Under the pieces are notes generated by a model, which was not told where the DNA came from, did not search any database, and saw nothing but the letters and a program-made list of their open reading frames with translations. A DNA stretch of 63,876 bases, the filler included, from Limisphaerales bacterium (GTDB taxonomy: Bacteria; Verrucomicrobiota; Verrucomicrobiia; Limisphaerales; SIBE01), in assembly GCA_044225505.1 (NCBI GenBank). It is 9 parts of 9 records of this genome, joined end to end, with 100 filler letters (N's around TTAATTAATTAA, not from the genome) between each part and the next. Parts side by side here need not be neighbours in the genome. Positions count along the whole stretch, not along the records: positions 44,632 to 51,752 come from JBGAIN010000280.1; 8 more parts are not named here. One strand, 5' to 3'. This document shows, piece by piece, positions 22,274 through 60,126 of this stretch (positions are counted from its first letter, which is position 1; each line of letters opens with the position of its first letter). The position numbers and the translations under genes were made by a program.

Positions 22274-22373
22274 NNNNNNNNNNNNNNNNNNNNNNNNNNN
22301 NNNNNNNNNNNNNNNNNTTAATTAATTAANNNNNNNNNNNNNNNNNNNNNNNNNNNNNNNNNNNNNNNNNNNN

Positions 22374-24133
22374 GTGCTTCCGGGAGAAACTCCTGTTACA
22401 TTAAAAGATTCCACGGCGAAGCTGTATTCTTGTCCGGCGGTCAGTGCTCGAATTTCTAAAGACGGACCCTGATCCGAAAACACCTGGTATGTTTGATAGA
22501 GTTTACGAGGTTCGATTCCCCAAAGCACGTTGTAACCGACCGCTCCTGGAACTTCCTCCCACGAAACGAACGCATTCCTCGGATCTACATCCCGCCGAGC
22601 CTTCAACTTAAGCGGCTGTGCGGGGCGGTCGCTCAAACCGGAGCCGAACACGCGCAAGTCGCTGATCGCCAGATGAGATGATGCCACGTAGATATGCTCG
22701 TATTTGATAAACCTCGCCCGAATTGACTCAGGCAGTTCAAAGTAGGCGTTGGGTCGATCTCGCTTTTCACCGCTGAGGTCGACAAAAGAAATCCAATTCG
22801 TTCCGTCCAGTGAATGCAGCAGTCGAAACTGAGTAAAGACATCAGGCCCACTTCGGTAGATGCCCGCCTTGTAGTCGGTGTAGTTCACTTGAACGGCGCG
22901 GACGTCACAGGGGTGCTCGAGATCAATGGTCAGCCATTCGCCCGCTCGATTTTGTGACGCTAGCCAAAACGTACGGGGGTTTTCGTCTGCAACATTTGCG
23001 GCTGTGTACGGACTGAGGACGGTGGAGGCCGTGCACTGCTTCCGATAGGAAAGGAGCATCCATCCTGTAAAAAGACTTTCCGATTCAGCTAGCTTCCGCG
23101 AGGGAAGATGATGCGGAAAATCGCCGAAACGAGTCGTTGCGTGGAGAAGACCTTCAGTGTCAAAGGCGGCCGGAAACATGGCGATTCGACGCTCAAAAGG
23201 AAAATTCACTGCAATCCAAGGAGTCCCCGTATTCCAATAATTGCCGTAGTTATCTTGAAAGGTGTTGCCATGACCGGCGCCAGTGACGAACCCGCCGGGC
23301 TTATAGGAGATCGGGGTGTTGGGGGCATACGTGAAGGGACCGAATGGGGTCTTTCCTACATACGCGCCATTCGCGTAGACGTTGTATTCCGTGCCTGGCG
23401 CTCCGTACTGCAAATAGTACATACCGCGATGTTTGGTCATCCACGCGCCTTCAATGAACGGTTTGATAGGATCGCGATGATCACGGCCGAACCGTTCCCA
23501 TCCGTGAATGTCAGGCCGCAAAGCGATGAGTTCTTTGGAGGTCCCCTGGTATGTCAGCTGCCGCGCGAAATCGAGCTCGATCCCGTAGAGGGGATAGAGA
23601 TTGGAAGATCCAAAGTACATGAACCAACGGTCGGTGTCTTCGTCGTGGAAAATCGCAGGATCCCACGGCCCTTGCGCTCCCGGCACGAACGGCAGCATGG
23701 GGTTGAACAATTTCAGAATGCCATTTTCCGGGGTCGTTGTGGAGTAAATCGGTCGTTGTTCGAATGTCGATTGAAACAGGTAGAGCGTGTCGCCCACAGA
23801 CAGAGCGGCGGGCGCGCACATATCTTCCTTCGGCCAGGTGTTCGGTTTGACGTAGTCCCAATGGAGCAGGTCTTTGGAATGCCACCAGCCGCCGGAAATG
23901 GTTACAAACAGGTAGTACTCGCCTTTGTGGTTGACGATTACGGGATCCGCTCCCGACCGAAAGGAGAGGTGATTGGTCTCTTGTTCAAAATTGTATTGGT
24001 AGTTAATGTCGATTGGATTGCAGTAGGTCGCCGCCTTGGACTGAGCCCCCAATAGCGTTGAGCCTACAGTCACCACGGCCAGCGGCAGCAATCTCCGCAC
24101 GCGCGCGCGCAGGTTTAAGAACGGGTGAAGCAT
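22374..24133 (-). CDS. Secreted GH43-family glycoside hydrolase with F5/8-type C and FN3 domains, 3'-truncated
   Basis: Signal peptide, YCNPIDINY, ADPVIV, WDPAIFHD, FIEGAWM and GAGHG; discoidin and FN3-like tail. Confidence 0.88.
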
Positions 24134-29402: not shown

Positions 29403-29707
29403 TCATGCGGATGCCAGAGGGCGCGGCGGACGAACAATGAGCGGGAGGAGGACGCTGGCCGCCATGACGAGCGCCATCGTGGATAATGCAAACTGGTAGT
29501 TGTTTGTCCGGTCTTTCGCTTGCGCGATGAGGATTGGCCCTAACACTCCTCCTGCGGACCAGGCGCTGAGCATTAGACCATAAACTTTCCCAGCATGTTT
29601 GCTCCCGAAGTAGTCCGCCGCAAAGGCCGGCATCGTGCCGAACCCGCCCCCGTAGCACAGCGCAACGATCATAAAAAGGATGCTCAAGGAGGGAAATCCA
29701 TGGACTG
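29403..29707 (-). CDS. MFS transporter (OFA-like) C-terminus, 5'-truncated
   Basis: LCYGGGFGTMPAFAADYFGSKHAGKVYGLMLSAWSAGGVLGP. Confidence 0.85.
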
Positions 29708-29807
29708 NNNNNNNNNNNNNNNNNNNNNNNNNNNNNNNNNNNNNNNNNNNNTTAATTAATTAANNNNNNNNNNNNNNNNNNNNNNNNNNNNNNNNNNNNN
29801 NNNNNNN

Positions 29808-32288
29808 AAGGACGCGTTTGGCGAGTTGCTCTCCAAGTTGATTCCTGTGACTCAAGCAGTGTTCAACAACGACGTGGTGATTGCGGTGCTGCCCGAATCC
29901 GCGACCGAGACGTACTTTACCTACGGAGCCACACCGCCGAGCAGCCTGGAGGACAACATACCGTCTCCCAATCGACTCATCGGAAACAGTCCGCCGATCT
30001 ACCGTGATGGCGTGCACCCAGACGAAGTGCCTCCATCTATTTTTCCGGCCCAACCCGACGTCACCGTCAAAGTTATCGGCACTCAAGATGGTCGTCGCCC
30101 GAGTTCCGTGGTTCAAGCCAGATTCCAATTCAAGACCGCGAATCCGTCGATCTTGGGGGACAACGCCGCGTCTTTTGTTATCACGAACGTCACGGCTAAC
30201 GCGGAAATGTGGTACACCGTGGATGGATCAGACCCGAGCGTCAACGGCCCCACCAGCAAACAAATCTCCATCGGCGTGAATTCATTGAAGCGCAGTGCCT
30301 CACCGATCTTGTTCAAGGTCCGCGCGTTTCGCACCGACTACAAATCCAGCGAAATCGTGAGCAAGACGTTCTTGCCCGAAGATTTTCAGGCCAACCGGAT
30401 CAGCTTCGGATTTGAGAGTGGTGAAGCATCGAGTGACTTCACGGCGTCGCCCGGGCAAACGTTCTACGCACCGGTGACGCTGTCGCTGCTGCCGTCGCAA
30501 GCCATGTATACGTTGCAGTTCAATATGACGGTCACCAACTTGAATTCCAGTCCGCCGGTGACGCCGGGAGCGGTCGGGTTCGAGTCCATGCTCGAAGAGC
30601 ACTTGGACAACGAGATCTATCGAACAATCCCGCCCTCTTTCTTCCTCAACGGGAAATCCGTCCCGCCCGAACTTCGATCCGATCCGCGGTTTGCGGACCT
30701 GGTCACCACCAATTCCGCGGTGAATCTACTTGCGGTGGGGTGGCTCGAACGCCGCGGCCAGACAAACCTCTACGATACCACGAAGCAGGATCTCATTACT
30801 TACTCTATCGCTCACGACACGGTTTTCTTAAGCGCGGGCCAGAAGGTCGTCGTCGGTGGATATAACTTCAAAGTGCCGGACACGGCGGTGGCCGGAAATA
30901 CTTATCAGATTCAGGTCGCTCGCCCATCGGCCACAGCGGATGGAATTAGCCAAGACAATTACATCGAGGCACCCCTGGATGGAACGCTGACCGCTACTCC
31001 GACCAACCTGGTCAATAGCATCAAGATCGTGACCGTTGCGCAGCGTCGTTATATCGTGGGGGATGTCGCGCCGTTTCGCTGGTTCAACGCAGGCGACTTT
31101 GGTGAAGGTCTGCTCCTGAACAACGATGTTGTCCAGGTCTTCCAATCTGCGGTCATGCTTTTTAACCGGCCTCCCGATGACAGCGATTTCTTCGACGCGA
31201 TGGACTCATCCGACGGCTCGACCAATGGCGTCTTCTTTGGATCTGATCTGGCCATCAACGACATTCGTCTCGGGGATGGCGTTCTCAATGTCGACGACAT
31301 TTACGTCACATTCCGCCGCGCGTTGGATCCGACCTTGACGTGGTATGCGCGATACTGGGAAGGCGGAACTCGACAAGCCACTCCGGTCCCGAACGTGTTC
31401 CGCGCGTCCCCTAGCCAGGCTGGGGAACGGCTCACGTTGCGTTCATCGGATCTGCCCGCCGAATCCTTTATCGCCGGACCTCCCTCCGCTATCTTCCAGA
31501 TTGACGATGTCCTCGTGCAACCTGGCCAAGTGGTTCAAGTGCCTGTTCGCGCCCGGATTACCGGCAGTTACCCATTGCGCGTTTTGATGCTGAACGTGGA
31601 GGCCGAAGCACTCGACGGATCTCCTGCAATCGACGGCGGTCTGGAGTTCGTCCCGGTTCCCGCTTTGGGCAATCCTACGCTAACCGCCTCGCTTTCGGCG
31701 CACAGTTTTGCTGGCGCCTGGTTGGACAGCAAGGTCGTGGGCGTTGCTGGAAACGCCATTGTCGGATATTTCCAGGTGAAGATTCCATCGACCGCGACGC
31801 CGAGTTCCGCGTATCGCCTCCACTTCGGACACGCCTCCGGTTCGCCCAACGGGCTCGGACTCTTTCCGAAAGCCGTGCAAGATGGATTGCTGACGTTGCA
31901 GGATCGCTCCGCGTCGAGCTTGTCCGACGGAATCCCAGACTCCTGGCGCCTGCGCAGTTTCGGTGCCGTGACCAGCCCAATCGCCGCCGCGAGCACGGAC
32001 GCCGATGGGGATGGGGTCTCTAACTTGGCCGAGTTTAAGGCGGGCACGGACCCAATGAGCGTGAACTCGCACTTCCATCTGGCGGCGAATCGCAGTTCCA
32101 GTCCGTTCACGCTGCGCTGGCCAAGCTCTCTGAACAGATCCTATGCGGTGGAGTCCGCTTCCTCCCTGTCGGGTGGCAAATGGACGACCGTGGGGCCGGT
32201 AATCCCTGGAACTGGGCAGGAAATTCAGTTCACTCCAGACGCCGCCGGAAGTTCGACCTTGTTCTTCCGCGTCCGGCTTACCGATTGA
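29808..32288 (+). CDS. Large secreted beta-rich protein (Fn3-associated/CHB_HEX_C-like, cohesin- and dockerin-like segments, DADGDG repeat), 5'-truncated
   Basis: MWYTVDGSDP, GDVAP...GDFG, GDGVLNVDDIY, DADGDGVSNLAEFKAGTDP and a C-terminal FFRV. Confidence 0.7.
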   Translation, partial: KDAFGELLSKLIPVTQAVFNNDVVIAVLPESATETYFTYGATPPSSLEDNIPSPNRLIGNSPPIYRDGVHPDEVPPSIFPAQPDVTVKVIGTQDGRRPSSVVQARFQFKTANPSILGDNAASFVITNVTANAEMWYTVDGSDPSVNGPTSKQISIGVNSLKRSASPILFKVRAFRTDYKSSEIVSKTFLPEDFQANRISFGFESGEASSDFTASPGQTFYAPVTLSLLPSQAMYTLQFNMTVTNLNSSPPVTPGAVGFESMLEEHLDNEIYRTIPPSFFLNGKSVPPELRSDPRFADLVTTNSAVNLLAVGWLERRGQTNLYDTTKQDLITYSIAHDTVFLSAGQKVVVGGYNFKVPDTAVAGNTYQIQVARPSATADGISQDNYIEAPLDGTLTATPTNLVNSIKIVTVAQRRYIVGDVAPFRWFNAGDFGEGLLLNNDVVQVFQSAVMLFNRPPDDSDFFDAMDSSDGSTNGVFFGSDLAINDIRLGDGVLNVDDIYVTFRRALDPTLTWYARYWEGGTRQATPVPNVFRASPSQAGERLTLRSSDLPAESFIAGPPSAIFQIDDVLVQPGQVVQVPVRARITGSYPLRVLMLNVEAEALDGSPAIDGGLEFVPVPALGNPTLTASLSAHSFAGAWLDSKVVGVAGNAIVGYFQVKIPSTATPSSAYRLHFGHASGSPNGLGLFPKAVQDGLLTLQDRSASSLSDGIPDSWRLRSFGAVTSPIAAASTDADGDGVSNLAEFKAGTDPMSVNSHFHLAANRSSSPFTLRWPSSLNRSYAVESASSLSGGKWTTVGPVIPGTGQEIQFTPDAAGSSTLFFRVRLTD

Positions 32289-35165: not shown

Positions 35166-36302
35166 ATGAGGCCCGGTTCTAACGCCCCTTGTCACACTCT
35201 CGTCACTTGGTTCGTATTGCTGGCGAGCGCCGCCTCGGCCTTGGCCCAGCGTGAAGTTCCACGCCCTCCCGCGCAGCTGACCAACGCTTTTCGTTGGACG
35301 ATGCGCGAACCGCTGTTCAGCGCAGTCCAGCGGCCGCCTGATCACTGCTATTCCGTCAAGGATCCCACCGTGGTTCGATTTGAAGACCGCTGGCATCTTT
35401 TCGTCACAATCCGAAGTGTCCAACGCTCTCATCAAATCGAATACATCTCGTTCTCTGACTGGTCGAACGCTGCTCAAGCGACACGGCATGTCTTAACGTT
35501 AACCAATGGATACTTTTGTGCCCCTCAGGTCTTCTTCTTTGAGCCACAAAAGAAGTGGTATCTTATCTACCAGGCTCTCGACACCTCCCGCAAAGTCCCG
35601 CTCCAACCCGCATTTTCAACCAGCACCAATCTTTCCGATCCTTCCTCCTGGAGTTCGCCAAGTTTTCTCTTTCCATCGCATCCGGAGAATGTCCCAGGTT
35701 GGATTGATTTCTGGGTCATCTGCGACGACCGCAAAGCCCACTTGTTCTTCACGTCGAATAACGGCCTCATGTGGCGCGCTGAGACCTCGCTTGCTGATTT
35801 TCCACATCATTGGACCACCCCTCAGATCGTGTTGCGGGATGATATCTTCGAGGCGAGTCATACCTACAAACTGACGGGTTCAGAACAGTTCTTGACGGTT
35901 GTGGAAAGCCTCGGCCCCAGCGGGAGGCGTTATTACAAAGCCTACCTCGCTTCCCAACTCGATGGTTCAGAACAGTTCTTGACGGTTGTGGAAAGCCTCG
36001 GCACGAGCGGGAGGCGTTATTACAAATCCTACCTCGATTCCCAACTCGATGGCCAAAGGCAACCGCTCGCCACAACGTGGGAAAAGCCTTTTGCCGGCCT
36101 CACCAATCTCTCCGTGCAGGGAGCGGCCTGGACCGATTCCGTAAGCCATGGGGAACTCATCCGTGCCGGCTTTGATCAACGGATGGAGCTAAACCCAATT
36201 CGGTTAAAGTTTCTATTTCAAGGAGTTTCGGACGCTGACCGCGCTGGGAAGAAATATGGCGAAATTCCATGGCAACTCGGCTTGCTGGAATGCGACCTCT
36301 GA
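35166..36302 (+). CDS. Secreted GH62-like alpha-L-arabinofuranosidase, with an in-frame 29-aa duplication
   Basis: SVKDPTVV, WHLF, YFCAPQVFFF, IDFWVICDD, FEASHTYK and SHGELIR. Confidence 0.82.
   Translation: MRPGSNAPCHTLVTWFVLLASAASALAQREVPRPPAQLTNAFRWTMREPLFSAVQRPPDHCYSVKDPTVVRFEDRWHLFVTIRSVQRSHQIEYISFSDWSNAAQATRHVLTLTNGYFCAPQVFFFEPQKKWYLIYQALDTSRKVPLQPAFSTSTNLSDPSSWSSPSFLFPSHPENVPGWIDFWVICDDRKAHLFFTSNNGLMWRAETSLADFPHHWTTPQIVLRDDIFEASHTYKLTGSEQFLTVVESLGPSGRRYYKAYLASQLDGSEQFLTVVESLGTSGRRYYKSYLDSQLDGQRQPLATTWEKPFAGLTNLSVQGAAWTDSVSHGELIRAGFDQRMELNPIRLKFLFQGVSDADRAGKKYGEIPWQLGLLECDL
35877..36050. repeat. 87-bp near-perfect tandem duplication inside the GH62-like gene
   Basis: GGTTCAGAACAGTTC...CCAACTCGAT at 35877 and 35964, with about 4 mismatches. 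Confidence 0.92.
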
Positions 36303-36404: not shown

Positions 36405-36947
36405 ATGAACCGCGTCATTGAGGCTTTTATGTTTATCCGTCCATCTCTCGTTCCTAACTCGCGTCGTTCTTCGCTCTCCGTCCTCTCCTGGCTCTTTGCT
36501 TGCACCGTCTTATTCGCTCTCTCAGGACCTCTTCAGGCCGCGAACCTTGCCCCTAAGGTTCGCATCTCCCAACCGTCCTTTGGAACTGGCTTCTCTGCTC
36601 CGACCAAGGTCGAGATCACCGTGGAAGCAGAAGATGCGGATGGCCAGCTGACGGAAGTGGAAGTGATTACCGACCTCGGCAGTTTGGGCAAAAGGCCCCT
36701 CTCTGACCCCGCCACGGGGCCAATTCAAATCCTGCAGTGGATCTGGGAAAACCCTCCGTCAGGCGAACACAAGCTCTCGGCCCGCGCCACTGATAATGAA
36801 GGAGCGACCACCTACTCGGAGTCTGTCCTTATTACTGTCAAAGGGGATCTTCCAGCGGATGTCTCCACTCTAAAGTTTGTGAGCCCGTCGCCTGGAGAGG
36901 TATTTCCGCCCGGTGCATCCATCCATTTGGAACTTGTCGCGATCGAT
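36405..36947 (+). CDS. Secreted protein with bacterial Ig-like domain, 3'-truncated
   Basis: Signal peptide, then NLAPKVRISQP...AEDADG...ARATDNEGATT. Confidence 0.75.
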
Positions 36948-37673
36948 NNNNNNNNNNNNNNNNNNNNNNNNNNNNNNNNNNNNNNNNNNNNTTAATTAAT
37001 TAANNNNNNNNNNNNNNNNNNNNNNNNNNNNNNNNNNNNNNNNNNNNTCTGTCCGATGTAAGCACGGGCGTCATACCAAACACCTGAAAACGGATCGTTT
37101 CTAGCGCAAGTGATTGCCTAGCAGGAGTTGGCTGCGGTTGACAAATTGTTTACTAACCCTCGGTCATCCCAGTCATTCCAGGTAGAACGCGGCGAAAGTA
37201 AGCCCGGTCGCTTTAGGGTCATGGGGTGGCCAGTTGAAGAAGACCCAAGCCCGCGAGGGAGCGGATATGCCTTATCCAGAACCGATACCGATGCCGATGC
37301 CGACCCCGACCGCGACGTGGAAGGGACATTAGTGTGGGTGCGGGGTCGGACCTGAGTAAGAGTCTCACCTGTTGGCGGTTGTGCATTTCGATATCGTTAA
37401 CACCCGGGCTTAGCGGCTGATTTGCTCCCATCGAAGTTGGCTAGAAGAGGTAGGCCTATCCCGTGGAGATCTCCTCCTGTGCCAAGAGCCTACAGGAATT
37501 TGCCGTGGTTCGGGATCCGGTGTCGCGCTTGTTTCAGCCCCGCCGCTGGAGTGCTTTCTGGAAGATGTTCGCTCCACATCGGATAGCGAATTCATCTCCA
37601 ATGCCGGAAGGGCCGCTCTGGTTTTTCCGTCGGTCAGTCCCTAATATGGGATTCTGCGGGTTAGCGTTGGTCC

Positions 37674-44390: not shown

Positions 44391-44531
44391 ATGAAGGAGA
44401 ATGCGATCGGGACCATTGGGGGCGACGGTGCGGTCGAGTTGCACCGCGATTTAAGACCCGGTTTGCTGGAGACGGTCTATGAAGTAACCCTGGCCCGATT
44501 CCTGGAAGGATGTGGTTTAGGGATCCAGCGC
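44391..44531 (+). CDS. GxxExxY family protein, 3'-truncated
   Basis: MKENAIG...AVELHRDLRPGLLETVYE. Confidence 0.75.
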
Positions 44532-44631
44532 NNNNNNNNNNNNNNNNNNNNNNNNNNNNNNNNNNNNNNNNNNNNTTAATTAATTAANNNNNNNNNNNNN
44601 NNNNNNNNNNNNNNNNNNNNNNNNNNNNNNN

Positions 44632-44865
44632 AAGCTTGCCTTTGTACTTCACCGTCACCCGCTCCGACTTCTTGCCGAGGAAAACGCCGAAACCGCTCAC
44701 ATACAGCTGGGCGCCGCTTTCTGTCTTCAGCAGGCTGACGACCTCGTTGTCGCGAATTAGCGCCGGTTCTGCAAACGCCAATCGCAACTGCTCCGGCTCG
44801 GGCGCCTCATAGCTCTCGGTCACCCAGTTCCACTGTCTCGGCCAAACCTGCGCCAAAGCCGCCAT
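44632..44865 (-). CDS. cas1: CRISPR-associated Cas1 N-terminus, 3'-truncated by contig end
   Basis: LYVSGFGVFLGKKSERVTVK resembles the Cas1 N-terminal strands; RBS GGAGG; directly downstream of cas3. Confidence 0.7.
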
Positions 44866-44883
44866 AGCACCTCCCGCCTCTTG

Positions 44884-47208
44884 CTAGAGTCCGTCTCCCT
44901 CCCCGAGCTTCCGGATCTCCAAGCCGGAATCAGGCGAGTAGAATCGATCCACAATCGCCACATTGTCCTTCCACTCCGCCCCATCGCGCATGCTCCTCAG
45001 TTGACGCCCGCTCACCGGAATAGTGAGGGCGCTTGCTCGCGCGGGTTCTTGCTTCAACAAGTACTCATACTCTTTCTGGAGTGCACGAGGAAGAACTTCG
45101 TAGCCGTCGAACATGTCCTTAAACATCTGTCGAAGATGGTCGCTCGTCCCAACAAACGGCAGACAGTTGCTCAGCACCTCGGACTCGAATCGAGTCATCG
45201 CCGTGCGTAACGTGGTCTCCCATTCTGTGCCCATCTCGCTGTCATAGATTCGGTCGATCATTCCTTGGAGGGCGAGCTCATCAAGTCCAGTTCCGTTCCA
45301 ATGCTCCAACTCATCAATCGCAAAGCGAACCAGTCGCGCGTCATACACGGGTGAGCCATTGGGGATTACCCTACTGACGAATACCGGACGAAGGCCACGC
45401 TTGTTAGCACCTGCTTGACGGTTCACCCTACCGAATCTCTGAAACAGCGCTTCCAAGGGCGCGGGATCCGAAAATAGCGCGTCGAAATCGACATTGAGGC
45501 TTACCTCGACCACCTGAGTGGCGACTAACACGACTGCCTCCCTGGCAGCCTGATCCACGCCCCTCGCTTCAGCGAGTCTCTGCTCCTTTCGTGAACGATC
45601 TTGCCCATTGAAACGGCTGTGCAACAGTTCGACTGGCAGGGTGAGCCGCTCCTTAAGCTTCCGATAAACCTGTTTGGCGCGTTCCACTGTGGTGGCCACA
45701 ATCAACGGTGATCCGCCGGACTTTACGAACTGGACAATGCGCTCAATACTTGACTCGCTCACCAATTCCTCATCGACTAAATGAACTTCATGGCGGCGAA
45801 AGGACTCGCGCAAGCTGTCTTCGGCCTCCACGATCTGCATGCCCTGAAACTGTTCGGCCAGCAAGCTCGATAGGCGCCTTGGAAATGTAGCCGACATGAA
45901 GAAAAACTTCGCACCGTGATCCTTGGCAAGATGACGACAAAGAGCCAGTATCCGCCCCAGCCGCCCAGCATCATAGGCATGAATTTCATCGAGCACAAAG
46001 CACGACCCAGCGGCGTCCGTCCAAATCGCCTCCTGCCCACGCAGACCAAAAGCTGCGCCGAGCCAAGGGTAAGGACTCATAACTCGAATTGGCAGGGCAT
46101 GGAGCCGAGCCAAGCTTCGAGCGTTCTTGGCAATGCGTTGAGCATCTGCTTCCGCGTACCCTTTGTCCAGAGCCTGGGCGTATAGGGCTTGCAGGCTTCG
46201 AGAATGATGCAATGCCACCAACTCTCTGTTTGCGCCAAACGTTCGGTCAAGGCGCGTTTTCATGGCGTTCATGCTGGCTTGGAACGGAAGGCTGTAAAAG
46301 AGATTCGCCTCGTAGCTGCTATGACGTCGTTGGTTCTGATACCAAAGCAGCGCGGCCTCGGTCTTTCCACTCCCGGTCGGGGCAACCAACAAGCCGTGCC
46401 CCACCACTTCCGACGCGGCCCTTTGGTGGTAATACCAACTGTTTGCAGGAGGAAAAGAACTTTGGCTCATCGCTGCATTGAGGTCGCTTAGCCCCAGATA
46501 ACTTAAATCTTGTGCGGCCGATGCGGAATGGTCCGCGATCATCAATGCCCCTCGCAGAAAACGCCCTTCCATGAACGAAGTATCGGCAGCCCCCAAGCTA
46601 TCGACGTACTCTCGGCATTCCGTCGCTGTATCCTCTATCGACGTCCAAGCTTCACCTTCTGGCCACGGTCTCCGCGCGCCCTCCGACCAATTCTTCGGGA
46701 ACGGTCCGGCCGTCAGTTCGACGGCTGGCCAAATCAGTTCCGTTAGAAGTCTCTGAGCGATTGAAAGCCAATTGCTACCCAATTCCTTCTTCGTTCCCGG
46801 TGTCGGACCGCCGCAACACTCGCCGAACGCTCTGTTCCACTCCTTGTGGTGAGTAAGAATAGCGGCGCCAATGCGCGCCCGATCGGTAACGTCAGGCACA
46901 ATCCAACGGACCATTGCGACGGAGAACACCTCGTGACGCAGACCGAAACGTCTGGCGTGTCCATGCACCACAGCCTGAAACCCCGGACAGCACTTTCCGA
47001 GGTCGTGTAACGTAGCAGCCAGCAGCAAACGGCTCCAGAACCGATCGTCACCGATCAGAAGGCCGAGATCGATCGTCCTTTTTCGCAACGCCACAATTGA
47101 TTTAATGACGTCGAGTGTATGGCTAGTTAGTCTCTGCCCATCTGGGTCATCGCCGGTCGGCGACTTCGCCCAAATTGATTCGTCGAGTCTAGCCGTCTCC
47201 AAATCCAT
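44884..47208 (-). CDS. cas3: CRISPR-associated HD nuclease/helicase Cas3
   Basis: WAKS...SHTLDV, LHDLGK, IADHSAS, APTGSGKT, DEIH, MSAT, HSRF, ATQVVEVSLN and QRFGRVNR; likely start MDLETARL overlaps the cas5 end. Confidence 0.96.
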   Translation of the reverse strand: MDLETARLDESIWAKSPTGDDPDGQRLTSHTLDVIKSIVALRKRTIDLGLLIGDDRFWSRLLLAATLHDLGKCCPGFQAVVHGHARRFGLRHEVFSVAMVRWIVPDVTDRARIGAAILTHHKEWNRAFGECCGGPTPGTKKELGSNWLSIAQRLLTELIWPAVELTAGPFPKNWSEGARRPWPEGEAWTSIEDTATECREYVDSLGAADTSFMEGRFLRGALMIADHSASAAQDLSYLGLSDLNAAMSQSSFPPANSWYYHQRAASEVVGHGLLVAPTGSGKTEAALLWYQNQRRHSSYEANLFYSLPFQASMNAMKTRLDRTFGANRELVALHHSRSLQALYAQALDKGYAEADAQRIAKNARSLARLHALPIRVMSPYPWLGAAFGLRGQEAIWTDAAGSCFVLDEIHAYDAGRLGRILALCRHLAKDHGAKFFFMSATFPRRLSSLLAEQFQGMQIVEAEDSLRESFRRHEVHLVDEELVSESSIERIVQFVKSGGSPLIVATTVERAKQVYRKLKERLTLPVELLHSRFNGQDRSRKEQRLAEARGVDQAAREAVVLVATQVVEVSLNVDFDALFSDPAPLEALFQRFGRVNRQAGANKRGLRPVFVSRVIPNGSPVYDARLVRFAIDELEHWNGTGLDELALQGMIDRIYDSEMGTEWETTLRTAMTRFESEVLSNCLPFVGTSDHLRQMFKDMFDGYEVLPRALQKEYEYLLKQEPARASALTIPVSGRQLRSMRDGAEWKDNVAIVDRFYSPDSGLEIRKLGEGDGL

Positions 47209-47944
47209 GAAAGACGACACCTCGCTTGACTCCATCTCGAACTTTAGTGTCTGGATCGACGAGCCAATACTTCTGAGTCTCGTCCAGGTACTTCCAACTC
47301 GGCGCAATCGAGCCTTCGGAGCTGCCGCAGTAAAGCCGTTCACGCAACACGATGTACCGAGCAAGCTCTGCCTTCCGCTCGGGCGGAGGTGAGATGAAAC
47401 GTGGCATCGTAACCGTAGTCCCCTGGGCAGTAAATGGCCGCATCGAGAAAGGTAGAAGTGTACCTTGGAGGTACGCACCGGCCTCCGCCTTCAGCTCTAT
47501 CGTGTCGACACTGATCACGTCCGCGAGATCCTGCGACCGCCCCAACACCACGCAGAATGCCGGCCTGCGGAACGCATCCGCCCAATCTACACGATCAAGA
47601 TAGAGAGTCAGCCTAGCCCGAAAATGAAAGTCTCGGTACTGCGGCTGAACATTGCCTTCAATGTTCTTTGGAATCTTCTCACCTTGGTCTTTGAAGCTCC
47701 CACCTTGAGCATAAACGATATGCTGATGTTCTAGGTCGCTCGATCGTGCCTCCGATTCGAAATGATATCCGAACCGGAAACTTTCTCGATTGGGAATTTC
47801 ACCCAGCGCACTGGCGACATGCCCAAAGATCGTCGAGGGCGGCGGCATCTCGAATGTAGGTTGCCGAGCAATCAGCAAATGAGGGTGCCGAAACGAGGCT
47901 ACCCTAGCTTCTACCACGACACGTAAGACCGCTTGGTCAGGCAT
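47189..47944 (-). CDS. cas5: Type I-B Cas5
   Basis: ASFRHPH...QPTFEMPPPSTIFGHVASALG and VLGRSQDL. Confidence 0.94.
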   Translation of the reverse strand: MPDQAVLRVVVEARVASFRHPHLLIARQPTFEMPPPSTIFGHVASALGEIPNRESFRFGYHFESEARSSDLEHQHIVYAQGGSFKDQGEKIPKNIEGNVQPQYRDFHFRARLTLYLDRVDWADAFRRPAFCVVLGRSQDLADVISVDTIELKAEAGAYLQGTLLPFSMRPFTAQGTTVTMPRFISPPPERKAELARYIVLRERLYCGSSEGSIAPSWKYLDETQKYWLVDPDTKVRDGVKRGVVFHGFGDG

Positions 47945-49010
47945 ACCAGTCGGCGTTTGCAGACTTGCTCAACTCTGCGGCCATCGCCTCAAATTGCTCG
48001 ACCGGGTGAGCGAGAACAACCTTCACCGGACCGGAATAACTCGCTATCGCGCGCTCAAGTCTTCCTCGTTCTTCGTCGAGGAACCCCTTTTGCCATCCAA
48101 TCAGAACGGGTGAGAGAAAATCCTGCTCGTACACCGACAGTATCTCCGCGAACGCGTCTATATGAAACGACGTACTTCGATCCCTGGCGGCTGTAAAGAT
48201 TCGAGAAAACGGATTATTGCCGTGACGTGTAACCGCTAATACGTTCACCGCTGGCGTGATATCCGTATAGTGCAACGCTTGTTTAGCTCCGCCACTCCAA
48301 AATTTGAATGCCCGCAGGAGGGTGCTTACCCGCTCCTGTCGCTGATCCAGCGGTAATCGAAACGCCTGCTGATTACGAAGCTGCACAACTTCCAGACCAA
48401 TGGCTTGAGCATGCTCACGGCGATGAGTATCCAAGTTCCGGTAACCGACCCGCTCTCCGTCAAAAAAGGTCCCTGCCGCGGACAGATCTAGCGAGAGCAT
48501 CCCTGATAGATGCGCTCGGTAGAACTCATGTTCAAAAGGTACCGGATCTCCTTCATGTCGGGTCATGGTCCCAAAGTCACTCGTAATAGCAGCAGGAGCC
48601 ACGGAAACGAATGTACTCACCCGAAAAGGAGAGATTCTTGTGATATCACGATCCTTCTCGAGCGGAGCCGGAGGAGTCCCCTTCGCTTCTTTCTTCGATT
48701 CCTTCTTCGAGGGAGCTCGCATATAGCCAAACAAGTCGTCGTCCCAATAGCTAATTGGCTCGGCGTCGGTATAGGCGACTTTGTTCTCACGATGCACGGG
48801 CGCGAACTTCCAATCCGAGCCGTTAGTCTGCAGCGTCATTCTTAACCAATAGCGGACCGCCTGTGCGGACACATATGCATAGACGCCTCCACCAGTCCGA
48901 ATTTTCTTTACTGGAACTGTGTTATCCGTAGCCGCGCTATCCTCTGCCTTACCGTTGTTGAGCGCGGAGGCAGGGCAATCAAGCATGATCAATCCGGTCA
49001 AAAATGGCAC
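47937..49010 (-). CDS. cas7: Type I-B Cas7 (Cst2/DevR family)
   Basis: ASALNNG, YVSAQAVRYWLR, DDDLFGYMRA, RISPFRVS and GGAKQALHYTD. Confidence 0.94.
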   Translation of the reverse strand: MPFLTGLIMLDCPASALNNGKAEDSAATDNTVPVKKIRTGGGVYAYVSAQAVRYWLRMTLQTNGSDWKFAPVHRENKVAYTDAEPISYWDDDLFGYMRAPSKKESKKEAKGTPPAPLEKDRDITRISPFRVSTFVSVAPAAITSDFGTMTRHEGDPVPFEHEFYRAHLSGMLSLDLSAAGTFFDGERVGYRNLDTHRREHAQAIGLEVVQLRNQQAFRLPLDQRQERVSTLLRAFKFWSGGAKQALHYTDITPAVNVLAVTRHGNNPFSRIFTAARDRSTSFHIDAFAEILSVYEQDFLSPVLIGWQKGFLDEERGRLERAIASYSGPVKVVLAHPVEQFEAMAAELSKSANADWYA

Positions 49011-50599
49011 TAGGCCACCTCACTTTCTTTCTCTGACTCGTCTTCCTCCGATTCCTCAGGCAGCACATCTGCATCCATCGCCTTTAAATCGATCAGTTTT
49101 TCTACCACCCGCAGGGAAATCAGTGAACGAACAACTCGCCAATCGCCGACTCGTAAATTGTCATCAATCGCAAAAACTTCAATGTAGTTCGCCCAGCTAA
49201 TCAAAAGCTTCCCACCTTGGGCAACTCTCGATTGCTCTTTTGCCAAGATTGCATGGAGATCCTCCGGCCTTCTTGCCATCAGAATCCGTCGCAGTAGGCG
49301 CTTGTTTCCAGCTGCGATCTCGACCGCAAGCAGATCGCTGAAAGCCTTGATTCGGTCTAACCTGCTACTATTCATTCCCAGCACCTCTATCAGGAAAAGC
49401 TCTGCAATTAGCCACGCACCCTCCCTAATCTGCCCTGTTCTTATCCGGTGTGTGTCTTCACCGCGAAGAATGTCTCCGGCGGCACTATGCATTTTTCTCC
49501 GACTACCCAAAAGATGATATGAGACAAATGCGTTTGCCGCGTCGTCATTAATGCTGCCCTCTTCCGGAAACACTGCCATGAGATCCTGAAGCACGTGATT
49601 TTTCGACGTTCCGGGCTGCTGAAGTGAGCGTCTCCCCGAAGAGGAAGATTCGACCTCGGCGGTGGGCTTGCGATCCTTCTCTTTCTTTCGCTCGGATTCC
49701 CAGGACTTCGCCACAAGCCGTTGCCACGGCTGCCGGTATTCGCCACGCATAGCGTTATTAAGGAACGTGACCAGCGAGCTCGGAATGCCGAATACCCTGA
49801 GCGATGGTCCTTGCCCAGAGTTACTCATCCAAAGAGCCTCGACCGACGCATTAATGCGAGTGAACGACGGAAAGGCAGTCAGCAAAATATCTTGCAAATC
49901 GGAGAGGAGAAGCGTAGCCGGCGCTTTGGCATCAGCATACTTGGGGGAGCCCTTTTGCTTGTCATAAGCCGATAGCGCTCTCTCCAATACGTCATCGGCA
50001 TTTGGCAGCTGATTGGAACGCGCCAAATTGAAGTATCGTTGGTTGTCACGCCAATAGCGCGATGCAAAACTGAGCGTGAGAGTTGGCTGGTCCGAATGAA
50101 CAATCAGCAGTTTTCCCTCGCAACGCCTGCCCGCCAATGGCAAAGTCTGAAGGGCAGTCAAATATGGCCCAGCGATGGCCAGCCCGCCCTGTAAATTCGG
50201 AAAGAAGTTAAACACACCGTCGCCAGTAATCATCGGCATCTGGGATCGGTGAATTATGTGTGTTGCAAGCCCCCCGGAGAACGCACAAGCTAGACCACCA
50301 GCATCTGGGTCGCCGGCATACCGGTGAGCATAGAGCACCCGCCGAACGTACTTCTCGCGGGTCGCAGCTTTCTTTTCCGCTTGGGCTTCTTTCCCAGCAG
50401 GCTGCACGAACTCCGAGTTCATAAAAACACAACTCAGATAGCTCGAGTAGTATGCGTCGAAATAACGCCGCGTCATTTCTTCGGCCGCCTGATCGAGATC
50501 CTCTAGCGTTAGCAACGAAGGGCTCGTTCTCTGGGTAATCGCGCATAATCCCGCGATGCCTACATCGACAAGAGGGTTTCCGGTCCAGTCAAGTAACAC
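49010..50599 (-). CDS. cas8b: Type I-B large subunit Cas8b (Cst1-like)
   Basis: WTGNPLVDVGIA N-terminus, PMITG..VFNFF and MSNSGQGP; precedes cas7; GTG start. Confidence 0.85.
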   Translation of the reverse strand: MLLDWTGNPLVDVGIAGLCAITQRTSPSLLTLEDLDQAAEEMTRRYFDAYYSSYLSCVFMNSEFVQPAGKEAQAEKKAATREKYVRRVLYAHRYAGDPDAGGLACAFSGGLATHIIHRSQMPMITGDGVFNFFPNLQGGLAIAGPYLTALQTLPLAGRRCEGKLLIVHSDQPTLTLSFASRYWRDNQRYFNLARSNQLPNADDVLERALSAYDKQKGSPKYADAKAPATLLLSDLQDILLTAFPSFTRINASVEALWMSNSGQGPSLRVFGIPSSLVTFLNNAMRGEYRQPWQRLVAKSWESERKKEKDRKPTAEVESSSSGRRSLQQPGTSKNHVLQDLMAVFPEEGSINDDAANAFVSYHLLGSRRKMHSAAGDILRGEDTHRIRTGQIREGAWLIAELFLIEVLGMNSSRLDRIKAFSDLLAVEIAAGNKRLLRRILMARRPEDLHAILAKEQSRVAQGGKLLISWANYIEVFAIDDNLRVGDWRVVRSLISLRVVEKLIDLKAMDADVLPEESEEDESEKESEVA

Positions 50600-50699
50600 G
50601 AATTACAATTTGCCTTAATGTATCTCAATTTCAGACGGCGTGGAATACAATTTCACGTCAAGCTAAAAAAAGATTCTCCTCAGTACAGTATCCGTGGGT

Positions 50700-50777
50700 G
50701 TCCCCTACATATCGGGGCAGTCGATGACTCTTGAATACAGATTTCAGTCCCCTTCATTTCGGGTATACTCTGATTGC
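50700..50777 (-). CRISPR. Mini-CRISPR (crRNA-like RNA gene, CreA/CreR-like): one 37-nt repeat, short guide, one truncated degenerate repeat
   Basis: On the minus strand, repeat 1 is GCAATCAGAGTATACCCGAAATGAAGGGGACTGAAAT (50777-50741) and the guide is CTGTATTCAAGAGTCATCGACTG. The repeat 2 core CCCCGATATGTAGGGGAC (50717-50700) is 15/17 identical to the repeat-1 hairpin. Confidence 0.85.
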
Positions 50778-50779
50778 CT

Positions 50780-50871
50780 CGGAGAGAGAGGGATTCGAAC
50801 CCTCGGTTCGTGGTACGAGCACGAACGACCGCTTTGGAGGCAGCTGCATTAAACCACTCTGCCATCTCTCC
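50780..50871 (-). tRNA. Class II tRNA with serine-type body and CCA (Trp) anticodon; CCA tail not encoded
   Basis: GGAGAGA TG GCAGAGTGGTTTAATGC A GCTGC-CTCCAAA-GCGGT C-GTTCGTG-CTCGTAC-CACGAAC-C GAGGG-TTCGAAT-CCCTC TCTCTCC G. It forms a full cloverleaf with a 7-bp variable arm and G73. Confidence 0.92.
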
Positions 50872-50881
50872 GCAGCAACAC

Positions 50882-50911
50882 GGCGGGGCCGCAAGGCCCC
50901 GCCTTAATTTT
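50882..50911. terminator. Strong GC hairpin between the promoter and the tRNA (T-tract only on the + strand)
   Basis: GGCGGGGCC-GCAA-GGCCCCGCC followed by TTAATTTTT on +. Confidence 0.6.
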
Positions 50912-50961
50912 TGCAATGGTCAATCCCTGATGTCAAGATTTATGACTCTTGAATACAGGGG
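50907..50961 (-). promoter_or_regulatory. Sigma70-like promoter of the tRNA/mini-CRISPR unit with adjacent protospacer and PAM-like CCC
   Basis: Minus strand: CCC-CTGTATTCAAGAGTCAT (50958-50942)-AAATC-TTGACA (50936-50931)-18 nt ending TGC-AAAAAT (extended -10-like). Confidence 0.72.
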
Positions 50962-51752
50962 AGTTTTCATTGGAGACTTCCATCCAGCCTTTTCCCCAAA
51001 CCGTCTGCCGCCCCACACCTACCCATCGTCCAGCCTCCAGCCACGCAAGAAATGCACCATACTCGCCCTCATAGTCCACCCATCCAACGAACCCGCCGAT
51101 CTGGTGACGTTGCTTCGTCTTCGAGCTCTTCCTCTCCACGCTGGACCAAGAAACCGTTCCTCCGACGATGCGCAGGCGGTCGGCTGCTTGTATCAGGTCC
51201 TGATAGTCCGCAGTTGGGCGGCCGCCCTGGTACATCGTGCAAAGATTTCCAACGCGCATTGACAACCGTCGAAACAGGGTACCGAACTCAGGTCGAACTG
51301 CCACTTCGCCAGACTCTTTGAACTCGGTCGGAGAAAGAAAATGGACTCGCAGTAACCCGCTGGACGCCAGGGCACTTGCAAGCGGGATCGCAATTCCCGG
51401 TACAGCATTCCCGGCAAGCACTCCATCGGCGTAGACCACAGCCCCTTCGTTCTGGTTGCGGTCGAGCGTGGTGATTCGCGTCAGTAGAACTTTTGCCCGC
51501 CTTGGCCCCACACCTTCTGTGGCCATCTGACGAAACGCTAGGACGAAATAAGCGAACAGATCAGGCTTCCCCGAGAATAGATGCAGGTCGAAGTAGAACG
51601 CGCCCCCCGAAGGAATGGTGTCGCCCCGAAAGCCCGTTGGTCGAAACACAAACGCCCGCGGCGGATCTGCCAAACCGCTGGGGCCACCCTCCCACCTTGG
51701 CTCAAAGACCTGCGCATACGGGCATTCATGTGCCCCGGAGCATTGCGCGGGC
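50933..51752 (-). CDS. cas6: CRISPR-associated endoribonuclease Cas6, 5'-truncated by contig end
   Basis: CPYAQVFEP...PPRAFVFRP, FLSPTEFK, GGFVGWVDYEG and the G-rich loop VGVGRQTVWGKG. Confidence 0.92.
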
Positions 51753-51852
51753 NNNNNNNNNNNNNNNNNNNNNNNNNNNNNNNNNNNNNNNNNNNNTTAA
51801 TTAATTAANNNNNNNNNNNNNNNNNNNNNNNNNNNNNNNNNNNNNNNNNNNN

Positions 51853-52971
51853 CACGCGGACATGCGCAAGGGATTTCATCCCGACTGGAATACCTACATT
51901 TTCAATTACGGTCGGCATGAAGTCCGCAGTTTTCTGCTGAGCAATGCGGTTTTCTGGCTCGATAAATATCATGTGGACGGCCTGCGGGTCGACGCGGTCG
52001 CTTCCATGCTCTACCTCGATTACTCACGCCAGCCAGGTCAGTGGATTCCCAATCAGCACGGCGGGCGCGAGAACCTGGAGGCGATCGGTTTTCTTCGGCA
52101 GTTCAACGACACGGTTAATCGCGAATATCCGGGCGTCCAGACCTACGCCGAAGAATCGACAGCGTGGCCTCAGGTGTCGAGACCTACTCACCTGGGTGGT
52201 TTGGGCTTCAGCTTCAAGTGGGACATGGGCTGGATGCACGACACGCTGCACTATTTTGCCTGTGATCCAATCCATCGCAAACACCATCACAGACGCCTGA
52301 CTTTTCGTAGCTTGTATGCCTTTGCCGAGAATTTTGTCCTGCCGCTCTCCCACGATGAGGTCGTGTTCGGCAAAGGCTCCTTGATTTCCAGAATGCCTGG
52401 GGATGAATGGCAGAAATTTGCCAATCTTCGCCTCCTGCTGGCCTATCAGTGGGCGCAGCCTGGCAAGAAGCTTTTGTTTATGGGTGGCGAATTTGGTCAA
52501 TGGAACGAATGGTATCATGAAGCCAGCCTCGACTGGCACGTTGTGAGAAATAACAACCGTCACAACGGACTTCAAAAACTGGTGGGCCATCTGAACTGGC
52601 TTTATAGGCAGGAACTCGCCCTGCACGAGGGTGATGCCTCACCCCCTGCTTTTGAATGGGTGGACGCGGACGATGCCGATCAGAGCACGCTCAGTTTTTT
52701 GCGCAAGTCGGAGCGCACAGGCGACGTAATCCTTACGGTATTCAACTTCACTCCGGTGCCGCGGCACAATGCTAGGATTGGTGTGCCGCGAGACGGCTTC
52801 TGGCGAGAAATCCTAAACTCGGACGCCATGGAGTATGGCGGCAGCGGTCAGGGCAATCAAGGTGGCACGGAGGCAGCACCTTTCGGCTGGCACTCCAAAT
52901 CCCATTCAGTCGCTATCACCTTGCCACCGCTGGCAGCGGTGTTTTTCAAGCACAACGAACCAAAGCGATAA
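51853..52971 (+). CDS. glgB: 1,4-alpha-glucan branching enzyme, 5'-truncated
   Basis: [44 protein letters not shown] and NFTPVPR. Confidence 0.97.
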
Positions 52972-58745: not shown

Positions 58746-58935
58746 ACCCGCAAGCCGTTCGTTCGCGGCTTCGGTGGGCGGATTCCCGTGCCGAGGTTGG
58801 TCCGCAAGCAACCGTCTCGTTCTATTCAACGCTTGNNNNNNNNNNNNNNNNNNNNNNNNNNNNNNNNNNNNNNNNNNNNTTAATTAATTAANNNNNNNNN
58901 NNNNNNNNNNNNNNNNNNNNNNNNNNNNNNNNNNN

Positions 58936-60126
58936 GAGGAATGTTATCACCATGGCGGCTGTCACCGGCCAAAAGAAGATTCGTTGCATGCCTTTCCAAT
59001 GGCCCCAAAGGATTTCTTTGATCCGGAGGGGCGTCGCCAAGATCAGTTCCACGGCGCCGGTGCGACGGGCCTCTGCCAGAGTCGCGCACGCGTACCACGC
59101 GATCCACAGCTTTAAAATCAGTCTTATCGCAATGCCAAGTGCGGTCGTTAGGGCAGGGGATGCCTGATTCGACGATAAGCTCAGACCAAAGGTCAGCAGA
59201 GAAGCGAAGGTGAGAACCGCGACGATCGCCCAGATGAGCTTTCGATGCCGTTCATTGCGCGTAGTCAACCACAGAATCGGGCTAACATTCAAAAGCTGCT
59301 GCCGGAATTGGTAGTTCGGTTGCTGGCGTGACAGTGCGGATTCGCTTCCTTTACGAGTATCGACTCCGTCTTGCCAATAGCGCGGCAAACCCCAGCTCGC
59401 CAGGACGAGGAACATCCATCCCAGCGAATGATTCCCAAACAACGTTAGCCAGAAACCGAATGCTTGGGACCGATATGTGAGGTCAGCCGCGCGGAGACCG
59501 CAGGCGGCCGGACTCAGGAGATCGAACGCTATCCAAGACCCTTTGCCCGCGCCGGCACAAAGGTAGGTTATGCCCGGTGGCAAGGAGATCGAAATCGCCA
59601 GCAATACGAGCACCAGCGCCAAGGACACGTGAGACTCAGAGCAAAATGTCGAGACGCAAAGGCTGACGCACAAAGCGAAAAAGAGCGCATTCGTTAGGAC
59701 CAATGAAGCACGCCAGAATTCTCCGGCGGTAATACCGCCCAGCACTAAGCCGACGGAAAGCACGGGTAAGAAGGCGAAGAGCCCTTGAAAGGCTCGTGCA
59801 GAGACCCCCACGAACTTGCCCAAAATGACGTCGTAGCCTTTCAAATCTGTTAAAAAGAGCAGGCCCAGAGTTCCTTCTCGCTTCTCTTCGCTGATGCTGT
59901 CGGCAGCTATGCTTGCGGCGGCAAGCAAGCAATAAAAGAACGCCAAGCTAGCCAGGGTCGGGAACACAGCCTGCCCGACCTGGCGTCCAAAAGTTTGATC
60001 TCCGATCAAGACAAGGAGCGCTGCGACGAGACTCGTCACGAGAGTAAAAAGAGTTCGCCAGCGATAGGTCGACGGTTTGCGGGCGGCAGCTCTTAATTCG
60101 CGCTCGACGATAGGCAAAAACGTCAC
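58936..60126 (-). CDS. ABC-2-type transporter permease-like membrane protein, 3'-truncated
   Basis: LPIVERELR, ADSISEEKREGTLGLLFLTDL and EARRTGAVELILATPL. Confidence 0.85.

Follow-up and report, generated by a model that had tools for sequence, protein, structure and literature searches.

The window analyzed here (63,876 nt in total, from assembly GCA_044225505.1) contains an operon of a CRISPR-Cas system (clusters of regularly interspaced short palindromic repeats and associated genes) of type I, subtype I-B. The operon lies on positions 44633-51752 of the window, corresponding to contig C73 of the host assembly. On the minus strand, the genes are arranged in the order cas6, cas8b, cas7, cas5 and cas3, and a gap of 333 nt separates cas6 from cas8b. 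This gap harbors a compact element, referred to below as the module, which consists of a target site beside a promoter, a leader hairpin, a tRNA gene with a serine-type body and the anticodon CCA, and a miniature CRISPR array whose guide matches the target site. A first-pass annotation of the sequence had proposed all of these elements: a perfect TTGACA -35 region with an extended -10 region, a GC-rich hairpin between promoter and tRNA, and, 2 nt past the tRNA, a CRISPR-like repeat followed by a short guide and a degenerate second repeat. Each of them was recovered on the minus strand between cas6 and cas8b (Table 1), and the flanking genes were recognized by a PF10040 match upstream and by Cas8b, Cas7, Cas5 and Cas3 profile matches downstream. 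A position between cas6 and cas8 inside a type I cas operon is typical of CreTA, a known RNA-based addiction module.

The 17-nt target site is located within the last codons of cas6 and ends 5 nt before the -35 hexamer. On the guide-matching strand it is preceded by CCC, a triplet resembling a protospacer adjacent motif (PAM). As noted in the first-pass annotation, the first 17 nt of the guide are identical to this site (17/17), so that the CreTA-typical match of a guide to a PAM-flanked promoter site is present. The 17-mer occurred exactly twice in the window at up to three mismatches, compared with 0.05 expected occurrences, and none of 100 shuffled sequences contained two. The hexamers TTGACA (50936-50931) and AAAAAT (50912-50907) form the sole promoter-like site within positions 50400-51200, where shuffled sequences contained 0.7 sites on average, and the TGA stop codon of cas6 (50935-50933) lies inside the -35 hexamer. 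The leader hairpin reads as an intrinsic terminator on the opposite strand, not on the sense strand. Promoter-proximal hairpins preceded by an A-tract were also seen by eye in related loci (L090:4797-4832 and the leaders of L070 and L123); such hairpins could be insulators against antisense transcription or could stabilize the 5' end.

The second repeat of the mini-array retains the hairpin CCCC...GGGG (50702-50717) with the AC behind it, and its 3' handle is lost. No CRISPR array was found in the host assembly, as judged by the lack of any 16-mer occurring at least three times at array spacing, and the 24-nt core of the first repeat has a single occurrence in the host genome at up to three mismatches. 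Because an array of the host itself was not found, the true repeat was taken from the genome of the related locus L090, whose array is composed of 37-nt repeats and 35-36-nt spacers. Counted by eye, the first repeat agrees with this reference at 23 of 37 bases, including 13 of the last 14, which comprise the 3' side of the hairpin and the handle. The second repeat agrees at 17 of 37 bases, likewise counted by eye. Judged against the L090 repeat, the mini-array displays the pattern of CreA, the guide RNA of CreTA modules, in which the 8-nt 5' handle is preserved in the first repeat and the 3' hairpin in the second. This pattern is termed 'divergent degeneration' of CreA repeats by Cheng et al. 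2021 (PMC8501985). The distance from the handle to the next hairpin is 23 nt in the module and approximately 48 nt in a true array. To judge from its length, such a short guide should permit binding without formation of a full R-loop. The 17-nt match likewise fits binding without cleavage by Cas3.

No terminator hairpin was called at the run of seven T residues following the mini-array, which makes transcriptional read-through into cas8b likely. Furthermore, the tRNA and the first repeat are only 2 nt apart with no promoter between them, in line with the earlier proposal that toxin and guide are co-transcribed. Between the mini-array and cas8b, prediction gave neither a promoter nor a terminator, so cas8b may share the module promoter, and in related loci the second repeat abuts the cas8b start. 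For these reasons, tRNA, guide and cas8b are probably parts of one transcript, and the module may also autoregulate cas expression in the manner of the CreR regulators considered below.

Table 1. Positions of the module, the cas genes and the linkers in the window
Feature	Position	Strand	Remarks
cas6	50933..51673	-	PF10040, 59.5 bits; 5' part lost at contig end near 51752
CCC	50959..50961	-	PAM-like triplet, 5' of target on guide-matching strand
Target site	50942..50958	-	17 nt, identical to guide start
Promoter	50907..50936	-	TTGACA, 18-nt spacer, AAAAAT with preceding TG; score 10/12
Leader hairpin	50882..50903	-	9-bp all-GC stem, at expected transcript 5' end
tRNA	50780..50871	-	92 nt, serine-type body; anticodon CCA at 50835-50837, loop CUCCAAA
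First degenerate repeat	50741..50777	-	37 nt, two bases past tRNA; supplies 8-nt 5' handle
Guide	50718..50740	-	spacer-like, 23 nt between handle and next hairpin; first 17 nt as target
Second degenerate repeat	50694..50730	-	in register with true repeat; 5' part degenerate, overlaps guide
Seven-T run	50665..50671	-	after mini-array
cas8b	49010..50599	-	GTG start; TIGR01908, 19.1 bits, slightly below cut-off of 19.4
cas7	47937..49010	-	Cst2/DevR type, subtype I-B; TIGR02585, E 2e-49
cas5	47189..47944	-	TIGR02593, 38.6 bits, above cut-off; TIGR01895, 77.9 bits, below cut-off
cas3	44884..47478	-	HD nuclease and helicase; TIGR01587, E 9.7e-73; TIGR01596, E 8.2e-18
Linkers	7495-7617, 14914-15036, 22269-22391, 29703-29825, 36943-37065, 44527-44649, 51748-51870, 58831-58953		N around TTAATTAATTAA

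A serine-type tRNA with the anticodon CCA

ARAGORN reported the module tRNA as 'tRNA-Trp(cca)' at 50779-50872, and the Rfam tRNA model matched it with 54.8 bits at a gathering score of 29. A bacterial tRNA-Ser is characterized by G73, by a long variable arm and by an acceptor stem and a D arm of the serine type, all of which the module tRNA possesses. Its acceptor stem of 7 bp is identical to that of the host tRNA-Ser(GGA) and Ser(GCU), its long variable arm contains a 7-bp stem, and it possesses G73 and a 5-bp T stem. In alignment A2, the module tRNA agrees with acidobacterial tRNA-Ser(GGA) in acceptor stem, D arm and T arm, and the acceptor stem and G73 are invariant.

Comparison with the 45 other predicted tRNAs of the host revealed the four tRNA-Ser as the closest ones, with 72, 65, 64 and 64 of 92 bases identical. 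The host tRNA-Trp (76 nt; contig C221) was outside the ten host tRNAs nearest to the module tRNA and has only the anticodon loop CUCCAAA and G73 in common with it. Neither the short variable loop nor the tRNA-Trp-like body expected of a tRNA-Trp is present, and the anticodon is not a serine anticodon. These data agree with the first-pass description of a Ser-bodied tRNA with a CCA anticodon. Two further ARAGORN calls in the host genome, a 'tRNA-Trp(cca)' (G000 C311:116032-116118) and a 102-nt 'tRNA-Ser(cga)' (G000 C154:33138-33239), have mismatched stems and are likely false positives. A blastn comparison of positions 50600-50970 with 400 genomes from the order yielded matches to the tRNA part alone. 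The matches were ordinary tRNA-Ser genes with 74-80% identity, and the best 29 of them were 28 Ser(GGA) and one Ser(GCU). This tally and the pattern search over the 400 genomes described below include one unpublished genome (G311), on which no other result depends.

The region was compared with an independent (Logan) assembly of run X1. One contig with a depth of 5.4 spans 50815-51100 without differences and covers the target, the promoter, the hairpin and tRNA positions 1-57, including the long variable arm and the CCA anticodon. Another contig, with a depth of 5.2, spans 50560-50765, again without differences. These contigs support the sequence of both segments and thereby the anticodon. No single X1 contig bridges 50766-50814, which is the T arm common to other tRNA-Ser genes. 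X1 may be the source sample of the window, in which case it provides an independent assembly rather than independent data.

Guide-target pairs and slot contents in related loci

Homologues of the host Cas6 (n=45, mostly approximately 316 aa, best identity 62%) originate from Bryobacteraceae, Bryobacterales and other Acidobacteriota assemblies. An alignment of 35 Cas6 sequences (A1) was prepared, and 80 loci from genomes and 80 from metagenomes were collected; these 160 Cas6-anchored loci and contig C73 gave a set of 161. The 11-nt motif at the 3' end of the repeat was detected in 19 of the 161 loci, mostly just 5' of cas8b. The same motif is part of the tRNA-Phe(GAA) anticodon arm in phage tRNA clusters (L204, L207-L211, L214 and L216), a coincidence. 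The loci with the closest Cas6 proteins (L032 and L033, 58-60% identity) carry unrelated DNA after cas6 and no module.

The set was scanned blindly for a handle with up to two mismatches combined with a CC PAM, an exact seed of 5 nt and at least 12 of 15 matching non-sixth positions. Ten of the 161 loci matched, two of them apparently spuriously, while the control PAMs GG, AA and TT gave 0, 3 and 1 loci, respectively. Across nine modules, guides agree with their own targets at 11-15 of 15 positions, and unrelated guide-target pairs do so at no more than 8. The PAM is CCC in seven modules and CCT in two, and in eight of the nine the target precedes TTGAC by 18-34 nt. The layout thus recurs in divergent acidobacterial I-B loci, and the guide-promoter covariation that the first-pass annotation had suggested looking for is seen in these nine modules.

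The guides of the nine modules are mismatched at positions 6, 12 and 18 in 21 of 27 cases, about as often as unrelated bases, and at the other positions in 12 of 135. As the scan ignored the sixth positions when pairs were chosen, the low mismatch frequency elsewhere arises partly by construction, and only the lack of constraint at the sixth positions counts as evidence. In type I Cascade, the CRISPR effector complex, every sixth base of the guide is flipped out. The drift at positions 6, 12 and 18 is what this flipping predicts and can be regarded as an evolutionary footprint of Cascade pairing geometry.

We next consider the DNA found between promoter and mini-array, designated the slot. Screening with ARAGORN and model R1 revealed slot tRNAs in three of the 160 loci (L090, L137 and L186), representing two lineages, and no further module tRNA. 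The L090 proteins are 43% (Cas6), 45% (Cas7) and 22% (Cas8b; E 1e-16 for the open reading frame (ORF) in the same position) identical to those of the window. L090 shares the window's order of elements, beginning with the site, followed by TTGACA-17-TATATT and a GC hairpin, then the tRNA, and ending with repeat, guide, repeat and cas8b. Its serine-type tRNA comprises 86 nt, has the anticodon UAU, scores 79 bits with model R1 and exhibits the ordinary 7/5 shape. L137 and L186 carry cas3 between cas6 and the module, which is followed by cas8b. Their tRNA (approximately 61 bits) has the anticodon UGC, an acceptor stem of the serine type, a long variable arm and a CCA end that is encoded in the gene; by our own reading, its acceptor stem comprises 9 bp and its T stem 3 bp, the shape of 'allo-tRNAs'. 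A comparison of L186 with L137 showed identity at 85/86 bases of the tRNA and 24/24 of the guide, whereas cas8b is 93.8% and the spacer DNA 80% identical, so that tRNA and guide are the best-conserved parts. All three lineages, the window included, thus carry a non-serine anticodon (CCA, UAU or UGC) on a serine-type body. Upstream of the L137 promoter, two CCC-flanked candidate sites for the same guide are present 28 nt apart (L137:3465 and 3493).

Other slots contain different genes. In L079 (5574-6150), the site matched by the guide is flanked by CCC and lies at the promoter of a gene for a HicA toxin (PF07927, 46.7 bits, E 3.3e-12), which by its sequence context is a predicted Cascade-repressed protein toxin; a weak HicB-like ORF just upstream of the hicA gene has no such site. 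The slot of L070 (6392-6700) contains strong hairpins, a Shine-Dalgarno motif and an ORF of six codons with AGA as second codon, reminiscent of the classic tRNA-sequestering CreT. Compared with its site, the L070 guide seems to contain an additional base at position 6. In L156 (4731-4960), a hairpin with a 13-bp stem copies at its tip the tRNA-Trp anticodon arm (loop CUCCAAA) without a whole tRNA, and the guide matches its site at 16/16 positions beside CCT. Small RNAs occupy the slot in some other related modules. In L090, L186, L164 and L079, the second repeat ends approximately 0-20 nt from the cas8b start codon, and because of this abutment cas8b must be transcribed through the mini-array there.

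Several candidates were discarded. The tRNA matches in L134, L169, L047, L053 and L054 represent ordinary tRNA genes located outside the slot, the match in L036 is a tRNA 3' fragment, and those in L037 and L142 were unconvincing. A shared 'UCCAAA' loop theme in non-tRNA slot RNAs was dropped, as only the L156 RNA folds into a convincing tRNA-Trp anticodon arm. A pattern combining T arm and repeat handle matched twice in the 400 genomes besides the host genome, once in a coding region and once after an initiator tRNA, which we attribute to chance. In viral contigs it matched 14 loci; most of them were the anticodon arm of phage tRNA-Phe, and the rest had no cas context.

Proposed function and competing explanations

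We propose that the module is a CreTA-type, Cascade-repressed addiction or anti-anti-CRISPR module within the I-B cas operon, whose toxin is a missense tRNA inserting serine at UGG codons. We assign this reading a probability of roughly 0.55. It was first suggested by the first-pass annotation and gained support from the CreA-like mini-array, the serine-type body, the covariation of guides and targets and the presence of tRNAs or HicA in the slots of relatives.

In the proposed mechanism, one sigma-70 promoter overlapping the end of cas6 would drive a single transcript composed of the leader hairpin, the serine-accepting tRNA with CCA anticodon, the mini-CRISPR and probably cas8b-cas7-cas5-cas3. 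Cas6 would cut both degenerate repeats, giving rise to a short guide resembling a CRISPR RNA (crRNA). Cascade loaded with this guide would pair with the 17 nt beside the CCC PAM, upstream of the -35 region, and block the promoter; Cas3 should not cut, the guide being too short for a full R-loop. The resulting negative-feedback loop would keep the tRNA low as long as Cascade works. If Cascade or Cas6 were lost, mutated or blocked by an anti-CRISPR, the promoter would open and the tRNA would accumulate, be matured by RNase P, 3' trimming and CCA addition, and be charged with serine by seryl-tRNA synthetase (SerRS), since this enzyme does not read the anticodon (PMC6125640). Serine would then enter at UGG codons proteome-wide, leading to growth arrest or death. 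UGG accounts for 17.4 per 1000 codons in the host, and tryptophan is present in 3568 of 3642 crude ORFs of at least 300 aa. A gene of the CCA-adding/poly(A) polymerase family is present in the host genome. Precedents for toxicity and miscoding come from yeast, in which many tRNA-Ser variants with non-serine anticodons were lethal (Zimmerman et al. 2018, PMC6125640), and from acidobacterial allo-tRNAs, which insert serine at sense codons in E. coli and are located near toxin-antitoxin genes (PMC5389517).

CreTA was reportedly described for haloarchaeal I-B systems by Li et al. in Science in 2021. Like the module, the haloarchaeal CreTA lies between cas6 and cas8 of the I-B operon (PMC8501985), its guide partly matches a PAM-flanked promoter site of a small non-protein gene, and its logic makes Cascade hard to lose. 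In contrast to the known CreT toxins, which are tiny mRNA-like RNAs tying up a rare tRNA, the candidate toxin of the module is a complete tRNA and would miscode. Moreover, toxin and guide share one promoter and transcript here, probably together with cas8b, and the guide is unusually short. CreR (10.1101/2023.03.10.532045; Shmakov et al., 10.1101/2023.03.03.530964) resembles the module in that the guide of a degenerate mini-array matches the promoter before cas8 and represses its own synthesis; it differs by the tRNA gene with a mismatched anticodon that stands here between promoter and mini-array. In CRISPR-repressed protein toxins (bioRxiv 10.1101/2024.01.05.574328) and CRISPR-supervised defence genes (10.1101/2024.12.27.630466), Cascade and a crRNA-like guide likewise silence the promoter of a toxic or defensive gene, and the gene is released when anti-CRISPRs block Cas proteins. 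The HicA gene of L079 fits this kind. The cargoes of both groups are proteins.

The tRNA itself has close parallels in the allo-tRNAs of Mukai et al. 2017 (PMC5389517), which come from what we take to be the same phylum (Acidobacteria) and likewise possess G73, a long variable arm and an acceptor stem of the serine type, while their anticodons specify other amino acids. Their commonest anticodon is UAU, as in L090, and the tRNA of L137 and L186 has the 9/3 shape. The window tRNA lacks the allo-tRNA shape (8/4 or 9/3, long D stem, tetraloop); it possesses a 7-bp acceptor and a 5-bp T stem, and L090 is also 7/5. Control by a Cascade guide is new relative to that study, which makes no mention of CRISPR. 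The engineered tRNA-Ser variants of yeast (PMC6125640) also carry a swapped anticodon, are still charged with serine and are in many cases lethal on accumulation; they are man-made and eukaryotic, whereas the module represents a natural bacterial gene with a built-in off-switch. CreTA, CreR, CRISPR-repressed protein toxins and acidobacterial serine-identity tRNAs with non-serine anticodons are already described, and the new aspects are the type of toxin and the wiring on a single transcript in a module that otherwise would work like CreTA.

In the openly searchable literature, we found no CreT that is a tRNA, and papers available by subscription only and supplements could hold one. The available text of Cheng et al. 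2021 (PMC8501985) makes no mention of tRNA genes, tRNA-likes, mistranslation or suppressors. The word 'tRNA' appears once in that of Shmakov et al. (10.1101/2023.03.03.530964), in a reference title. Neither tRNA nor HicA is mentioned in the available part of 10.1101/2024.12.27.630466, nor mistranslation or suppressors in that of a review of December 2025.

A number of findings weigh against a miscoding toxin. Bacterial tryptophanyl-tRNA synthetase (TrpRS) reads G73 together with the CCA anticodon, and because of this recognition part of the module tRNA could be charged with tryptophan and thereby be harmless. The module tRNA encodes no CCA end, which is encoded in all 14 inspected host Ser, Leu, Tyr and Trp tRNAs, and no RNase Z scored above cut-off in the host genome (95% complete); on both grounds its maturation may be poor. 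The Cas proteins show no avoidance of tryptophan (1.2-2.4%). As cas8b apparently lacks a promoter of its own, any expression of the Cascade genes would also produce the tRNA, an unusual arrangement for a strong toxin. No CRISPR array was found in the host assembly, and its CRISPR system may therefore be inactive. Furthermore, a tRNA occupies the slot in just three of the 160 related loci in addition to the window, and in the 400 sampled genomes of the order blastn revealed no close relative of the exact module and the pattern search no module tRNA. Finally, Mukai et al. observed no translation in E. coli with six allo-tRNA(UAU) variants, of which two nevertheless killed the cells (PMC5389517).

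The absence of a separate cas8b promoter or of a terminator between mini-array and cas8b is also what would be expected if the guide served as a CreR-type regulator of the cas genes. It would then repress the promoter of cas8b-cas7-cas5-cas3, and the tRNA would be a harmless passenger, for example a leader cut by RNase P that defines or stabilizes the guide precursor, or a decaying captured gene. The short distance between second repeat and cas8b in L090, L186, L164 and L079 is in agreement with such a role, and CreR-type autorepression has been described for I-B, I-E and V-A systems (bioRxiv 10.1101/2023.03.10.532045; Shmakov et al., 10.1101/2023.03.03.530964). However, a processing element needs no change of anticodon, yet non-serine anticodons occur in all three lineages. 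A decaying gene is difficult to reconcile with an intact cloverleaf that is the best-conserved segment in L186 and L137, and a passenger does not account for the HicA toxin in the same slot of L079. We therefore regard pure autoregulation as rather unlikely. Autoregulation and a toxin role are compatible with each other.

Poor maturation bears on a further explanation, according to which the tRNA is toxic and repressed by Cascade without miscoding. Possible modes are the sequestration of SerRS, TrpRS, EF-Tu or a modification enzyme, and competition of the uncharged tRNA for UGG codons at the ribosome. Apart from the missing CCA end and RNase Z, this explanation is favored by the slot of L156, where a hairpin with a copy of the tRNA-Trp anticodon arm takes the place of a whole tRNA, by the known CreT RNAs, which sequester tRNAs (PMC8501985), and by the two non-translating allo-tRNA(UAU) variants that killed E. 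coli (PMC5389517). In contrast, the module tRNA resembles a working tRNA-Ser in its acceptor stem, its D and T arms, its long variable arm and G73, which goes beyond what a decoy would need. Moreover, the anticodons vary between CCA, UAU and UGC, which leaves no single synthetase or codon as a common target. We consider a non-miscoding toxin doubtful.

Mukai et al. suggest a possible role of acidobacterial allo-tRNAs as regulatory RNAs or as suppressors of the missense or nonsense type (PMC5389517). By analogy, a low level of serine at UGG or missense suppression might be helpful under stress, with Cascade setting the level. Changes from tryptophan to serine have no apparent benefit, and the link to the cas operon and the toxin genes in the same slot fit a toxin better, so that useful recoding appears improbable. 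A misassembly in which sequences of a metagenome bin of low depth (approximately 5) were falsely joined at the conserved tRNA T arm would agree with the unbridged interval, in which many 31-mers are common to other tRNA-Ser genes, but is highly improbable, as guide and target on opposite sides of the gap match at 17/17 positions, the depth is equal on both sides (5.2 and 5.4), one X1 contig joins the serine-type 5' half to the CCA anticodon and the variable arm, and the same layout is present in the independently assembled L090, L137 and L186.

Returning to the missense tRNA toxin guarded by Cascade, a broader proposal can be put forward tentatively, at somewhat less than even odds. Acidobacterial I-B systems might police a family of natural missense tRNAs, in which serine-charged bodies carry Trp (CCA), Ile (UAU) or Ala (UGC) anticodons. 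These tRNAs would be silenced by Cascade and a self-encoded guide and released as toxins that miscode throughout the proteome upon loss of Cascade or exposure to an anti-CRISPR. If this holds true, the module would be the first natural toxin to act by deliberate misreading of the genetic code with a CRISPR guide as its control, and would add a new class of toxin to the CreTA-type guards. It would assign a physiological role to natural tRNAs with a mismatch between anticodon and amino acid, and it would link the puzzle of acidobacterial allo-tRNAs to the self-protection of CRISPR-Cas against loss and anti-CRISPRs. The abundance of serine-identity tRNAs with non-serine anticodons in Acidobacteria, allo-tRNAs included, would thereby be explained. 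From a practical point of view, promoter, tRNA and guide would constitute a compact programmable kill switch of approximately 300 bp.

Remaining features of the window

The host assembly comprises 9.04 Mb in 342 contigs. A 115-nt unit recurring every 7.1-7.6 kb in the window turned out to be runs of N around the linker sequence (Table 1), by which contigs of approximately 7 kb are chained; the window is not one stretch of the genome. Contig edges cut genes. An ORF starting at 51862 matches only the C-terminal part of the GlgB profile, and cas6 is cut by the contig end, as its homologues are longer. Downstream of cas3, an apparent start of cas1 was noticed by eye only. On other contigs, the window contains a perfect 40-nt tandem duplication (13753-13832) and an 87-nt tandem duplication with 95% identity inside a long ORF (35877-36052). 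A bacterial 16S rRNA match (21275-22166) covers model positions 9-873 only and ends approximately 100 nt before the contig end.

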